Below are positions 34,742 to 59,127 of a DNA stretch of 64,000 bases, piece by piece. The position numbers and the translations under genes are program-made. The first letter of the stretch is position 1; each line of letters opens with the position of its first letter. The notes under the pieces were generated by a model that worked only from the letters and a program-made list of their open reading frames with translations, ran no database searches and was not told the origin of the DNA. Source of the DNA: Escherichia coli (GTDB lineage Bacteria > Pseudomonadota > Gammaproteobacteria > Enterobacterales > Enterobacteriaceae); NCBI RefSeq assembly GCF_036507355.1, contig NZ_AP027877.1; one strand, 5' to 3'.

Positions 34742-35118
<377 letters not shown>

Positions 35119-45387: not shown

Positions 45388-45458
45388 AGCCTCGTGAGCG
45401 GGACGGTCGTAAGGTCGTTCCGCTCCACTTCACTGAACGGCAATCCGAGGGTGTGGAT

Positions 45459-46823
45459 ATGATTAGTGCATTCGATATTTTCAAAATTGGGATTGGTCCC
45501 TCCAGTTCGCATACCGTGGGGCCAATGAATGCCGGAAAAAGTTTTATTGATCGGCTGGAAAGTAGCGGCTTATTAACCGCGACGAGCCATATTGTGGTCG
45601 ATCTGTACGGGTCGTTGTCACTGACGGGCAAAGGCCATGCCACGGATGTCGCCATCATCATGGGACTGGCAGGAAACAGTCCGCAGGATGTTGTCATTGA
45701 TGAGATCCCTGCATTTATAGAGTTAGTAACGCGCAGCGGGCGGCTGCCAGTGGCATCTGGTGCGCATATTGTTGATTTTCCTGTAGCAAAGAACATTATC
45801 TTCCATCCCGAAATGTTGCCTCGCCATGAGAACGGAATGCGGATCACTGCCTGGAAGGCACAGGAAGAGCTATTAAGTAAAACCTATTACTCTGTCGGCG
45901 GCGGGTTTATTGTCGAAGAAGAACACTTCGGCCTGTCGCACGATGTCGAAACACCCGTACCTTACGATTTCCACTCAGCAGGTGAACTGCTGAAAATGTG
46001 TGATTACAACGGCCTGTCTATTTCTGGCCTGATGATGCACAACGAGCTAGCGCTGCGCAGTAAAGCGGAAATTGACGCCGGTTTTGCCCGTATCTGGCAA
46101 GTGATGCATGACGGTATTGAACGCGGGATGAACACTGAAGGCGTGCTGCCTGGTCCGCTCAATGTGCCGCGCCGTGCCGTAGCGCTGCGTCGTCAGCTGG
46201 TTTCCAGCGATAACATCTCTAACGATCCGATGAATGTCATCGACTGGATCAACATGTACGCGCTGGCGGTTAGTGAAGAAAACGCAGCTGGCGGGCGCGT
46301 GGTAACGGCACCGACTAACGGTGCGTGCGGCATTATTCCGGCAGTGCTGGCTTATTACGATAAGTTCCGTCGTCCGGTAAACGAGCGGTCAATTGCCCGC
46401 TATTTTCTTGCAGCCGGGGCTATTGGCGCGCTGTATAAAATGAACGCCTCCATCTCTGGCGCGGAGGTCGGCTGTCAGGGGGAGATTGGCGTGGCCTGTT
46501 CAATGGCGGCGGCAGGGTTAACTGAACTACTGGGCGGCAGTCCGGCGCAGGTATGCAATGCGGCGGAAATCGCGATGGAGCATAACCTTGGACTGACCTG
46601 CGATCCGGTTGCCGGACAGGTACAAATCCCGTGCATTGAACGTAATGCCATTAATGCCGTGAAAGCAGTAAACGCCGCGCGGATGGCGATGCGCCGCACC
46701 TCGGCACCGCGTGTTTCACTCGATAAAGTGATCGAGACGATGTATGAAACCGGCAAAGATATGAACGATAAATACCGCGAAACATCACGCGGAGGACTGG
46801 CCATTAAAGTGGTCTGCGGCTGA
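45459..46823 (+). CDS. tdcG: L-serine dehydratase TdcG
   Basis: ORF 45453..46823; ATG start at 45459 giving [23 protein letters not shown] (454 aa). Confidence 0.9.
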
Positions 46824-46847
46824 CATTGCTGTCAGCTTTCATCCTTG

Positions 46848-46873
46848 GGTGCACAAATGTGCACCTTTTTTTT
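46848..46873 (+). terminator. Rho-independent terminator after tdcG
   Basis: Perfect palindrome ggtgcacaaatgtgcacc followed by a T-run of 8; a second hairpin gctgacattgctgtcagc (46819..46836) overlaps the tdcG stop. Confidence 0.75.
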
Positions 46874-47097
46874 GTGATCTGCCGCAAATAGAGAATGAAT
46901 ATTCTCTTGCGATTAATTTAGTAGAAAATTCTTATCCATCTCCGTTATTTCAAAGTCTTGATTGTGAAGATTTTCTCTGACCTCGCGCGTATCATTTCTT
47001 TATTCTAATAACTCGCCTGCAAAAACGTAGACCGCATATCGCCTTGATGCGGCTCGGAAAAAAATGATAAGCCCTACAAAATATTGAGCGAGAAATT

Positions 47098-48429
47098 ATG
47101 GAAATTGCATCGAATAAAGGCGTCATTGCAGACGCTTCGACCCCGGCGGGTCGTGCTGGAATGAGTGAGAGCGAGTGGCGAGAAGCGATCAAATTCGACA
47201 GTACTGACACCGGCTGGGTGATTATGAGTATCGGGATGGCGATTGGCGCGGGGATTGTTTTTCTCCCGGTGCAGGTCGGTTTGATGGGATTGTGGGTATT
47301 TTTGCTCTCATCGGTGATTGGTTACCCGGCAATGTATCTGTTTCAGCGATTATTTATTAATACGCTGGCAGAATCACCAGAATGTAAAGATTACCCGAGC
47401 GTCATTAGCGGTTATTTAGGTAAAAACTGGGGCATCCTGTTAGGTGCACTCTATTTCGTAATGCTGGTGATTTGGATGTTCGTCTATTCCACCGCCATCA
47501 CCAACGATAGTGCTTCCTACCTGCATACCTTCGGCGTGACGGAAGGGTTGCTGTCAGACAGTCCCTTTTATGGTCTGGTACTGATTTGCATTCTGGTGGC
47601 GATCTCTTCACGCGGCGAGAAATTGTTATTCAAAATTTCGACTGGCATGGTGCTGACCAAGCTGCTGGTGGTCGCGGCGCTGGGCGTGTCGATGGTGGGA
47701 ATGTGGCATCTGTATAACGTCGGTTCGCTACCGCCGCTGGGGCTGCTGGTGAAAAACGCCATTATTACGCTGCCGTTTACCCTGACGTCGATTCTGTTTA
47801 TCCAGACGTTAAGCCCGATGGTGATCTCTTATCGCTCGCGGGAAAAATCAATTGAAGTAGCGCGGCATAAAGCATTGCGGGCAATGAATATCGCGTTTGG
47901 CATTTTGTTTGTCACCGTCTTTTTCTACGCCGTGTCGTTCACGCTGGCGATGGGGCATGACGAAGCGGTAAAAGCCTACGAGCAGAATATTTCCGCGCTG
48001 GCGATTGCCGCACAGTTTATTAGCGGTGACGGCGCAGCGTGGGTGAAAGTGGTCAGCGTCATTCTCAATATCTTTGCTGTCATGACTGCATTCTTTGGCG
48101 TCTATTTAGGCTTTCGCGAAGCAACGCAAGGGATCGTAATGAACATCCTGCGTCGCAAGATGCCTGCCGAGAAGATTAACGAAAATCTTGTTCAGCGCGG
48201 CATCATGATTTTCGCCATTTTGCTGGCCTGGAGCGCCATCGTACTGAACGCACCGGTGTTGAGCTTCACCTCTATCTGTAGCCCGATTTTCGGCATGGTA
48301 GGGTGCCTGATCCCGGCGTGGCTGGTTTACAAAGTACCGGCATTGCACAAATACAAAGGGATGTCTCTGTACCTGATTATCGTCACTGGTTTGTTGCTTT
48401 GTGTTTCTCCGTTCCTGGCATTTTCTTGA
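47098..48429 (+). CDS. cyuP: Cysteine/serine transporter CyuP (YhaO)
   Basis: 443-aa hydrophobic ORF; recognised as YhaO; paralogous to TdcC in this window. Confidence 0.85.
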   Translation: MEIASNKGVIADASTPAGRAGMSESEWREAIKFDSTDTGWVIMSIGMAIGAGIVFLPVQVGLMGLWVFLLSSVIGYPAMYLFQRLFINTLAESPECKDYPSVISGYLGKNWGILLGALYFVMLVIWMFVYSTAITNDSASYLHTFGVTEGLLSDSPFYGLVLICILVAISSRGEKLLFKISTGMVLTKLLVVAALGVSMVGMWHLYNVGSLPPLGLLVKNAIITLPFTLTSILFIQTLSPMVISYRSREKSIEVARHKALRAMNIAFGILFVTVFFYAVSFTLAMGHDEAVKAYEQNISALAIAAQFISGDGAAWVKVVSVILNIFAVMTAFFGVYLGFREATQGIVMNILRRKMPAEKINENLVQRGIMIFAILLAWSAIVLNAPVLSFTSICSPIFGMVGCLIPAWLVYKVPALHKYKGMSLYLIIVTGLLLCVSPFLAFS

Positions 48430-58998: not shown

Positions 58999-59127
58999 AT
59001 GCGCTCCAGGCATGATACGGCAGACTATATTTGTTATACCACTTTTGCGAGTTTAGCTCTACTCGCAGTGATGAAAAAGCCGCCTGAGAAGGCGGCTTTG
59101 AAGGGAAACTAAAACTTACACGAAGCG

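Follow-up and report, generated by a model that had tools for sequence, protein, structure and literature searches.

Among the small RNAs (sRNAs) that derive from mRNA 3'UTRs and act with Hfq, CpxQ, GlnZ and UhpU are the closest described counterparts of the locus analysed here, together with the canonical intrinsic terminators of Escherichia coli. SdhX and NarS are further examples of Hfq-dependent sRNAs that come from a 3'UTR and end at the terminator of the parent mRNA. The features of an Hfq-binding module have been published: a terminator hairpin, a poly(U) tract of at least 7 T, a preceding U-rich stretch and a single or double hairpin. In mRNA terminators most U-tracts are shorter than 6 according to a published source, long tracts being typical of sRNA genes.

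The 3'UTR of tdcG has already been flagged as an Hfq-bound sRNA candidate in published Hfq co-IP, RIL-seq and RNAtag-seq data. The Hfq co-IP table lists tdcG as enriched and marks it 'sRNA*, likely 3' UTR sRNA', and one published paper describes interactions of the Hfq-bound tdcG 3'UTR with 20 transcripts. In the EPEC RIL-seq study the RNA, named tdcG.EST3UTR (Table S6; about 118 nt, NC_011601 minus strand 3543186-3543303), is one of five core-encoded new sRNA candidates, and it displays the properties by which RIL-seq recognizes sRNAs: it is the second partner in chimeras, carries a U-tract and has at least three partners, mostly in a CDS or 5'UTR. Read starts per position amount to 1.1-1.6 in the 3'UTR versus 0.012-0.017 in the tdcG CDS, which makes tdcG an outlier in three of three libraries (PMC10687069). 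The three papers all treat the RNA, a short and stable Hfq-associated species from the tdcG 3' end that stops at the tdc terminator, as a candidate; our literature searches turned up neither a northern blot nor a map of its 5' end nor an experiment on target regulation.

The window, by which we mean the whole stretch of 64,000 nucleotides that was analysed, covers the tdc-cyu region of E. coli. A 601-nt query was matched in 5398 of 5426 complete E. coli genomes; the matches sit between genes annotated as tdcG and cyuP, and the MG1655 gene map is concordant. Because these near-identical genomes carry RefSeq annotation, the identity of both flanking genes is fixed, and the earlier note on this DNA had named them correctly. 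The gene tdcG is the last of tdcABCDEFG and stops with TGA at 46821-46823; its ATG was placed at 45459 from the annotated length of 1365 nt and the ORF end at 46823. The tdc and cyu genes are reported to be neighbours that are transcribed independently, cysteine inducing cyuPA and leaving tdc unaffected (PMC9040844). Window positions x were converted to MG1655 coordinates as 3305108 - x, a conversion checked by the exact match of window 46758-46900 to MG1655. The span of the candidate sRNA was transferred to the window by anchoring its 3' end, its 5' end being uncertain by several nt, and its length of 118 nt is itself an estimate from read coverage. The features are collected in Table 1.

Table 1. 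Features around the tdcG 3' end and the start of the tdcG-cyuP spacer, in window coordinates.
Feature	Position	Strand	Basis
tdcG CDS, L-serine deaminase III	45459..46823	+	RefSeq annotation, 99-100% identical E. coli records
Candidate Hfq-bound sRNA 'tdcG.EST3UTR' / 'tdcG 3'UTR sRNA'	~46758..46875	+	EPEC RIL-seq, Hfq co-IP
Proposed seed AGUGGUCUGCGGCU, last tdcG codons (K V V C G stop)	46808..46821	+	complementary to MEME motif
Hairpin 1, GCUGACA-UUGC-UGUCAGC, internal stem-loop, non-terminator	46819..46836	+	repeat search, RNA folding
U/C-rich single-stranded linker UUUCAUCCUU between hairpins	46837..46846	+	unpaired in centroid fold
Hairpin 2, terminator stem-loop GGGUGCAC-AAAU-GUGCACCU	46847..46866	+	terminator scan, repeat search, folding
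T8/U8 tract of terminator	46866..46873	+	sequence
Published in vivo RNA 3' terminus cluster	46868..46879	+	MG1655 minus strand 3258229-3258240, tdcG rows of terminus table (PMC10687069)
Putative CRP-like site TGTGATCTGCCGCAAA	46873..46888		2 mismatches to TGTGA-N6-TCACA
cyuP (yhaO) CDS, first gene of cyuPA	47098..48429	+	ORF list, RefSeq annotation, MG1655 map

Hairpin 2 and the U8 tract are the Rho-independent terminator of tdcABCDEFG; they end the transcript about 52 nt past the tdcG stop and separate tdc from the independently controlled cyuPA operon. As RNA, hairpin 2 forms 7 bp with an AAAU loop (-12.4 kcal/mol, z = -3.6), and a G46847-U46866 pair may lengthen it to 8 bp (7 Watson-Crick pairs plus the G-U). 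It has the stable GC-rich stem, the 4-nt loop and, directly 3', the T8 expected of an intrinsic terminator, and the run of eight T was correctly noted before. A terminator scan of 46000-47600 called 7 sites versus 1.6 expected and ranked hairpin 2 with T8 at the top (8 pairs, 5 of them G-C). In another common E. coli allele the tract reads U6-A-UU in place of U8.

In vivo evidence comes from a published table of MG1655 RNA 3' termini, whose tdcG rows place a cluster at the end of the T-run, with dominant positions at 3258234 and 3258231 (window 46874 and 46877); the terminus is classed there as 'Primary', with a 3'UTR of 52 nt (PMC10687069). Mapping of transcript 3' ends was one of the checks that the earlier note had proposed, and since the tdcG rows hold a terminus at this place, the absence of 3' ends that it had named as the contrary outcome does not apply. 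The supplements of Adams et al. 2021, a 3'-end study, make no mention of tdcG and are uninformative on this point.

The alignment of hairpin 2 comprises 19 sequences (16 distinct), which come from one Enterobacter and from Escherichia, Citrobacter and Salmonella; 99.2% of its cells pair and 5 of the 8 pairs have changed on both sides, though its registration by hand on the stems favours the pairing counts. MAFFT with the T-run included shifted the 3' arm out of register, and the hairpin-only alignment was used instead. The covariation score was reached by none of 500 shuffles. Compensatory examples include a U-A to C-G exchange and, in C. sedlakii, the replacement of GCAC/GUGC by CACA/UGUG, and the loops vary freely (AAAU, AAAAU, UUUA, UUGA, UUCG, AGAA and CAUG). 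All tdcG-linked genomes examined have a T-run 3' of the hairpin; in Trabulsiella, Pseudocitrobacter and Kluyvera, tdcG is followed by an unrelated terminator, again a hairpin with a T-run.

The DNA of hairpin 2 had also been described as a perfect 18-bp palindrome, GGTGCACAAATGTGCACC (46848-46865), and as a possible site for CyuR or another protein ahead of cyuP. The palindrome is not perfect, for its centre is AA and the reverse complement of that centre is TT; GGTGCACAAATGTGCACC consists of the 8-nt arms GGTGCACA and TGTGCACC flanking a non-symmetric 2-nt AA. That GGTGCACA-AA-TGTGCACC is an operator for CyuR or another cyuPA regulator seems to us very improbable, even though the repeat lies in the tdcG-cyuP spacer and CyuR is published to bind somewhere in this spacer. 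The CyuR (DecR/YbaO) motif, GAAwAAATTGTxGxxATTTsyCC, was defined upstream of cyuR-mdlAB (PMC11408624). Within the spacer it is matched best at 46851-46873 (minus strand), where 15 of the 20 specified positions agree (5 mismatches); only 5 matches in the 64-kb window are equally good, and none with three or fewer mismatches was found. The resemblance is weak, with an AAAA-N7-ATTT core, and it draws on both the T-run and the AAAT loop; hairpin 2 is GC-rich, not AT-rich. In orthologous regions the match is not conserved: it has 7-8 mismatches, or falls below the two best, in E. albertii, Escherichia sp. E1V33 and Escherichia E69 and likewise in Citrobacter and Salmonella, and it is kept in Escherichia sp. 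MOD1 and the GTDB E. coli representative, where the allele is the same as in the window. Some 240 bp separate the repeat from the cyuP ATG downstream of it, and the repeat evolves like an RNA stem. Its arms change compensatorily and its centre is free to vary, as fits RNA pairing and would not fit protein contacts with specific bases. In genera such as Enterobacter, Yokenella and Superficieibacter, where cyuP and its downstream control blocks are retained but another gene lies upstream, this place is taken by unrelated terminator hairpins that belong to other genes. With an imperfect repeat and a weak, non-conserved motif match, the proposed protein-binding site is left unsupported.

The conserved control elements of cyuP begin directly after the T-run. 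The putative CRP-like site, which begins on the final T of the terminator T-run, probably marks the start of the cyuPA control region. A site of this kind, at a fixed distance from the cyuP ATG (-208 to -239), occurs with at most two mismatches in 45 of 80 loci, among them genera without tdcG upstream, and only 4.6% of random 86-nt zones contain a site with so few mismatches. Expression of cyuPA requires Crp, and direct binding is yet to be demonstrated (PMC9040844); the CRP-like site, if it acts, would settle whether Crp works directly at cyuPA, a question that is open in the literature. In the cyuP leader there is also a local stem that was seen when sequences were folded singly; RNAalifold misses it, and the stem registers differ between sequences.

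Upstream of the terminator, the perfect 7-bp hairpin claimed across the tdcG stop is present, and so is its spacing of 11 nt (46837-46847) from the second hairpin. The arms of hairpin 1, GCTGACA and TGTCAGC (46819-46825 and 46830-46836), are perfect over 7 nt and enclose the 4-nt loop TTGC; the stop codon lies inside the 5' arm. The RNA folds with -9.0 kcal/mol, and G46818-U46837 could give an eighth pair. Perfect 7-bp hairpins with loops of 3-8 nt are common in this DNA (57 matches at 41 centres in the window versus 29 +/- 4 in Markov-1 random sequence), with a chance rate of about 1 per 2 kb, which makes hairpin 1 by itself only weakly surprising. By comparison, the 64 kb hold only 2 places where two perfect hairpins lie 18-60 nt from each other, and the 71-nt stretch folds with z = -4.2, none of 200 shuffles being equally stable, so that the pair of hairpins is not a product of chance.

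The stem of hairpin 1 is intact in 10 of the 10 E. coli sequences compared, and that of hairpin 2 is likewise retained within the species; variable positions lie in the hairpin 1 loop and in the linker behind it. Other Escherichia species have a remodelled hairpin 1, and Citrobacter and Salmonella have none, which confines it to Escherichia. In its alignment 93.9% of the cells pair and a single pair has changed on both sides, in two species and at a place where the alignment is ambiguous; we saw no convincing covariation among the hairpin 1 sequences aligned. We also considered a REP element and rejected it, as hairpin 1 is unlike the REP-like repeats, which Citrobacter carries at this position.

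The earlier note took the two hairpins for a dual terminator, of which the second half holds, since hairpin 2 with T8 does terminate. The tandem arrangement, in which hairpin 1 would be a first, weak stop with hairpin 2 as its back-up, has hardly any probability in our view. An operon end that carries two stable stem-loops separated by 11 nt, with three U residues after the first, would suit it, but no U-tract follows hairpin 1, where UUUCAUCC is found instead, and the terminator scan of 46000-47600 did not call it. An RNA 3' end after hairpin 1, expected at about 3258268-3258272, does not figure among the tdcG rows listed in the excerpt of the published terminus table that was consulted, which pass from 3258229-3258240 to 3258851-3258861 with nothing between (PMC10687069). 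Moreover, a ribosome halted at 46821-46823 would be expected to cover hairpin 1 on translated mRNA, and Citrobacter and Salmonella keep the terminator and lack hairpin 1.

It is likely that the tdc terminator formed by hairpin 2 and U8 is at the same time the 3' end of an Hfq-bound tdcG RNA that has hairpin 1 inside it. Such an RNA would carry, in this order, the seed, hairpin 1, the U/C-rich linker, the terminator hairpin and the U8 tail, and it would be the Hfq-enriched species that stands far above the level of the tdcG CDS and is joined in RIL-seq chimeras to many motif-sharing mRNAs. Every feature of the published Hfq-binding module can be found at the tdcG 3' end in hairpin 1, the linker UUUCAUCCUU, hairpin 2 and U8. 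The sequence of the linker varies, yet it is U/C-rich throughout Escherichia, and by analogy it is a candidate for the internal U-rich part of the module. Together these four elements may form a module that stabilizes the RNA and presents the seed; hairpin 1 would therefore be a structural element of the RNA and not a terminator. The 5' end of the RNA would probably arise by processing of the tdc mRNA. No transcription start is listed within 150 nt (PMC10687069), and we propose no internal promoter because no sigma-70 consensus promoter was found in 46000-47600. An Rfam scan of 46300-47400 by E-value returned noise only (TarB, 22 bits versus a gathering score of 80; RyhB, 19 versus 55), and a scan of the whole window at gathering thresholds returned RNase P RNA only; the tdcG 3' element therefore matches no curated family.

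The RIL-seq partners share the MEME motif AGCCGCAGAnCACY, which is complementary to the proposed seed AGUGGUCUGCGGCU (EPEC RIL-seq). Predicted duplexes at the listed sites in ynfE, ytfB, hha, fruR and stbB all (5 of 5) use about 46808-46822, with energies of -24 to -36 kcal/mol that were matched by 0-6 of 200 shuffled targets. The seed is invariant in the representatives of six Escherichia species, has a synonymous C>T in one of eight sampled E. coli variants and is confined to Escherichia. The seed shares its last 3 nt with the start of hairpin 1, and in the predicted fold of the 118-nt RNA it is partly paired.

These data bear on two further readings of the RNA. In the one, hairpin 2 keeps its role as terminator, but hairpin 1 has arisen by accident and the abundant 3'UTR fragment is a decay intermediate without a regulatory role, which the terminator hairpin and Hfq protect. 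We regard this as unlikely, although the chance frequency of perfect 7-bp hairpins, the lack of conservation of hairpin 1 and seed beyond Escherichia and the lack of convincing covariation in hairpin 1 agree with it, as do the missing entry for a transcription start and the missing validation experiments in the literature. Many highly expressed genes are likewise enriched in their 3'UTRs (PMC10687069), but tdcG is an approximately 100-fold outlier despite very low expression of its CDS. The RNA also has the RIL-seq hallmarks of an sRNA, and its partners share a motif complementary to one stretch, which would be unexpected of random Hfq-bound debris; nor does a fortuitous hairpin 1 sit well with stems that are intact in all sampled E. 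coli next to a loop and linker that vary. In the other reading, a functional Hfq-dependent sRNA specific to Escherichia is encoded at the tdcG 3' end, and through its seed AGUGGUCUGCGGCU it regulates mRNAs such as hha, cra (fruR), ynfE and ytfB. We hold this to be a serious possibility, somewhat short of even. Such an sRNA would be released from the tdc mRNA or made from an unrecognized internal promoter, and hairpin 1, astride the stop codon, would insulate the seed from the terminator module; it would link anaerobic threonine/serine catabolism to other regulons.

The two hairpins, a terminator and an upstream stem-loop in the tail of a candidate Hfq-bound RNA, are an already known and fairly ordinary feature, and the finding alters nothing fundamental. 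In annotations the site should appear as terminator of the tdc operon, a name that covariation and the mapped 3' end both justify; the candidate sRNA tdcG 3'UTR, which three independent datasets flag and nobody has characterized, belongs there too. The tdc and cyu genes form a compact amino-acid fermentation locus in which the last T of the terminator opens a conserved CRP-like site.

Compared with canonical E. coli intrinsic terminators, the tdc terminator differs in nothing essential. It shares with them the GC-rich stem of 7-8 bp, the 4-nt loop, U8, the mapped 3' end and the placement of hairpin 2 some 25 nt past the last stop codon; its U8 exceeds the tracts of most mRNA terminators, and the last T of its T-run doubles as a base of the CRP-like site. 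In comparison with the 3'UTR-derived Hfq sRNAs CpxQ, GlnZ and UhpU, the tdcG RNA is a candidate and unnamed, and its seed lies within the last codons of the ORF and partly in the stem of hairpin 1. CpxQ is conserved along its length, whereas the tdcG seed and hairpin 1 are restricted to Escherichia. Like these sRNAs, the tdcG RNA consists of the end of a CDS and the 3'UTR, uses the intrinsic terminator of its parent and has a long U tail; it is likewise Hfq-enriched, and its many RIL-seq partners have a complementary motif in common.

The window comes from the E. coli chromosome and is reversed relative to MG1655, in which tdcABCDEFG is followed by cyuP-cyuA on one strand. At 99.15% identity to MG1655 over 6 kb the window is not MG1655 itself, and the two are identical across 46758-46900, where the MG1655 coordinate equals 3305108 minus the window coordinate. 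A 601-nt query around the hairpins matched 5398 of 5426 complete E. coli genomes, flanked by annotations of tdcG (L-serine ammonia-lyase) and cyuP. One match (H1, strain D7, NZ_CP010150.1) is in two pieces, and an IS1 transposase is annotated within its tdcG-cyuP spacer.

Features of the tdcG-cyuP region and related elements, in window coordinates
Feature	Position	Strand	Remarks
rnpB (RNase P RNA)	34742-35118		sole Rfam family at gathering score in the window
tdcF-tdcG spacer	45388-45433		GC-rich hairpin GAGCGGGACG...CGTTCCGCTC, without U-tract
Strong 3' end just 3' of the spacer hairpin	~45425-45440		dominant 45433; MG1655 3259668-3259683 (PMC10687069)
Seed AGUGGUCUGCGGCU	46808-46821		final tdcG codons and first three bases of hairpin 1
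Hairpin 1	46819-46836		arms GCTGACA (46819-46825) and TGTCAGC (46830-46836), TTGC loop
tdcG stop codon TGA	46821-46823	+
Hairpin 2	46847-46866		inverted repeat 46848-46865
Best CyuR-motif match in the spacer	46851-46873	-	15 of 20 specified positions
T-run of eight	46866-46873
Mapped tdcG 3' terminus	46868-46879		MG1655 3258229-3258240, dominant 3258234 and 3258231 (PMC10687069)
CRP-like site TGTGATCTGCCGCAAA	46873-46888		2 mismatches to the TGTGA-N6-TCACA core
Third perfect 7-bp inverted repeat	46890-46907		AGAGAAT-GAAT-ATTCTCT
AGAAAAT-type boxes	46921-46935
Second TGTGA element TGTGAAGATTTTCTCT	46963-46978		exactly 90 bp 3' of the first CRP-like site
TTTTTCTC block	46970-46980		conserved as far as Proteus
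TATCAT/TATGAT hexamer	46990-46995		conserved
TCTAAT hexamer	47004-47009
cyuP 5' leader	47016-47097		conserved; invariant CCTGCA, then stem-loop
Leader stem-loop	47032-47052		CCGCAU...AUGCGG
cyuP start	47098	+
Other close pair of perfect hairpins	59046-59105		GCGAGT...ACTCGC, then AAAAAGCCGCC-TGAGAA-GGCGGCTTT

The earlier note, which described two tandem perfect hairpins here, was largely correct as an observation and half right in its interpretation, as a single terminator is present and a CyuR site is unsupported. Hairpin 1 is as claimed, with the tdcG stop codon inside its 5' arm, and folds as RNA at -9.0 kcal/mol; an 11-nt gap separates it from the second repeat, which the T-run follows. 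This second repeat was called a perfect 18-bp palindrome but its arms, GGTGCACA and TGTGCACC, are separated by AA, a centre lacking self-complementarity. Its RNA fold has 7 pairs closed by an AAAU loop (-12.4 kcal/mol), and a G-U pair of 46847 with 46866 can bring the number to 8. A single perfect 7-bp hairpin is not rare (57 matches at 41 centres in the window, versus 29 +/- 4 in composition-matched Markov-1 random sequence). Two perfect hairpins at most 60 nt apart occur in only two places in the window, the 71-nt segment spanning both hairpins has a fold z of -4.2, and hairpin 2 with its T-run was the top match of the terminator scan; the combination is not due to chance. At the other close pair, the second hairpin looks like a terminator.

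Hairpin 2 with its T-run is almost certainly the tdcABCDEFG terminator. The 3'-end mapping that had been proposed as a check exists in published form: a minus-strand MG1655 terminus classed as 'Primary' for tdcG lies at the U-tract and just past it, and its tabulated upstream sequence equals window 46824-46875 exactly (PMC10687069). The neighbouring tdc and cyu operons are reported to be transcribed independently (Zhou and Imlay, PMC9040844). Among 80 cyuP loci, one genome per species, tdcG lies directly 5' of cyuP in Escherichia, Citrobacter, Salmonella arizonae and diarizonae, Yokenella, Trabulsiella, Pseudocitrobacter, some Kluyvera and one Enterobacter. An equivalent of hairpin 2 stands just before the T-run in Escherichia, Citrobacter, Salmonella and the one Enterobacter, with drifting arms (GGGUGCAC/GUGCACCC, GGGCGCAC/GUGCGCCC, AGGCGUAC/GUACGCCU, AAGCACAC/GUGUGCUU) and a freely variable loop. 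Across 16 distinct sequences, 99.2% of alignment cells are paired and five of eight pairs show changes on both sides, in an alignment biased towards structure because it was registered on stems by hand, MAFFT having misplaced the 3' arm. Its covariation score was reached by none of 500 shuffles, shifting the partner by 1-3 columns reduced pairing to 16-67%, and the pattern is visible directly in the raw sequences. Trabulsiella, Pseudocitrobacter and Kluyvera have other, unrelated hairpin and T-run terminators 3' of tdcG. Within E. coli, the 81-nt stretch 46800-46880 is exact in 3360 of 5394 genomes (406 at 90-95%) and varies more than the 601 nt around it, with two terminator alleles: a K-12 type (AAAT loop, T8) and a second common one, of EPEC / E. 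albertii type (5-nt AAAAT loop, CCC, T6-A-TT). In two of the cyuP loci, L020 and L007, unrelated sequence has taken the place of the terminator hairpin's left arm.

The proposed dual terminator stands for hairpin 2, with its mapped 3' end, and not for hairpin 1, which is followed by UUUCAUCC with no U-tract and was not called by the terminator scan. In the excerpt of the terminus table examined, no tdcG row falls between 3258229-3258240 and the next at 3258851-3258861 (PMC10687069). The arms of hairpin 1 are intact in all 10 E. coli sequences compared, with a variable loop (TTGC to TTAC) and linker, and in other Escherichia species a predicted stem-loop still spans the stop codon with different pairings. 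Its covariation is not convincing (93.9% of cells paired, one pair changed on both sides, in an ambiguous alignment region). Outside Escherichia the stop-to-terminator stretch is wholly different, and several Citrobacter loci (L006, L010, L011, L012, L015, L020) carry REP-like repeats (GCCGGATAAGGCG...CGCCGCCATCCGGC) there. The strong 3' end beside the tdcF-tdcG spacer hairpin probably results from processing or protection of RNA within the tdc operon, and bears on the amount of transcription arriving at tdcG.

The other suggestion, that the inverted repeat is bound by CyuR ahead of cyuP, is very improbable. The published CyuR motif (PMC11408624) has no match with three or fewer mismatches in the window. 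The best spacer match is one of five of its quality in the 64 kb, is built from the T-run plus the AAAT loop, and has 7-8 mismatches, or falls below the two best, in E. albertii, Escherichia sp. E1V33, Escherichia E69, Citrobacter and Salmonella. Genera with cyuP behind another upstream gene have unrelated hairpins at the terminator position and keep the downstream blocks. In its pattern of change, the inverted repeat behaves as an RNA stem. The AT-rich third repeat and the boxes after it (Citrobacter version AGAAAATATTTCT) make more plausible candidates for binding of an Lrp/AsnC-type regulator (CyuR) than the terminator repeat, which is GC-rich.

The cyuPA control region probably begins directly after the T-run, one T of which is the first T of the CRP-like site. 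At a near-fixed -208 to -239 from the cyuP ATG, 45 of the 80 loci have at most two mismatches to the CRP core (32 have only one), a level that only 4.6% of 86-nt zones drawn at random from the window reach; the site also occurs in Enterobacter, Yokenella and Superficieibacter loci without tdcG upstream. Expression of cyuPA requires Crp, whose direct action was stated to be open (PMC9040844). Further on, the second TGTGA element overlaps the TTTTTCTC block, with the two hexamers just downstream. The leader stem varies in sequence by genus, its loop is always (C/U)AUCGC and is complementary to an invariant GCGAG beside the start codon, and Rfam gave no match for the leader; this arrangement may serve translational control as an element that has yet to be described. 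One locus titled Chryseobacterium sp. (L053, CACSKA010000008.1) has an Enterobacteriaceae-type cyuP (89% identity) and an enterobacterial upstream region, and its assembly is probably mislabelled or contaminated.

Three published datasets agree in pointing to both hairpins as parts of a candidate tdcG 3'UTR sRNA. In RNAtag-seq, read starts per position number 1.1-1.6 in the 52-nt 3'UTR and 0.012-0.017 in the coding sequence, which makes the 3'UTR an outlier in each of the three libraries, and the tables list no mapped transcription start within 150 nt; the Hfq-bound 3'UTR was reported to interact with 20 transcripts (PMC10687069). Work on the C-terminal domain of Hfq found tdcG enriched in Hfq co-IP, labelled 'sRNA*, likely 3' UTR sRNA'. 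RIL-seq in enteropathogenic E. coli places tdcG.EST3UTR (estimated span 118 nt) among five new sRNA candidates encoded in the core genome, with a partner-RNA motif, AGCCGCAGAnCACY, complementary to the seed AGUGGUCUGCGGCU. The seed segment was used in all five predicted duplexes with listed partner sites (ynfE, ytfB, hha, fruR and stbB; -24 to -36 kcal/mol), and no more than 6 of 200 shuffled targets equalled them. Neither the seed nor hairpin 1 extends beyond Escherichia, and folding of the 118-nt RNA is predicted to pair part of the seed.

The tdcG 3'UTR therefore combines a terminator, an in vivo 3' end, over-accumulation, Hfq association and a shared complementary motif; a discrete band, 5' end or target regulation was not found in the literature searched. 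A stable Hfq-bound RNA from the tdcG 3' end very likely exists, and the case for a real regulatory role is nearly balanced, leaning slightly to the negative. Both the mapped terminator and the candidate 3'UTR sRNA have been published before, and the residual value of the feature lies in this candidate, which is still uncharacterised. No Rfam family covers the element, and the weak resemblances of the hairpin region to RyhB and TarB are of generic shape only. The candidate RNA runs from the seed through hairpin 1, a U/C-rich linker and the terminator hairpin to eight U; terminators of sRNAs carry at least seven T, and most other terminators fewer than six (source on the Hfq-binding module).
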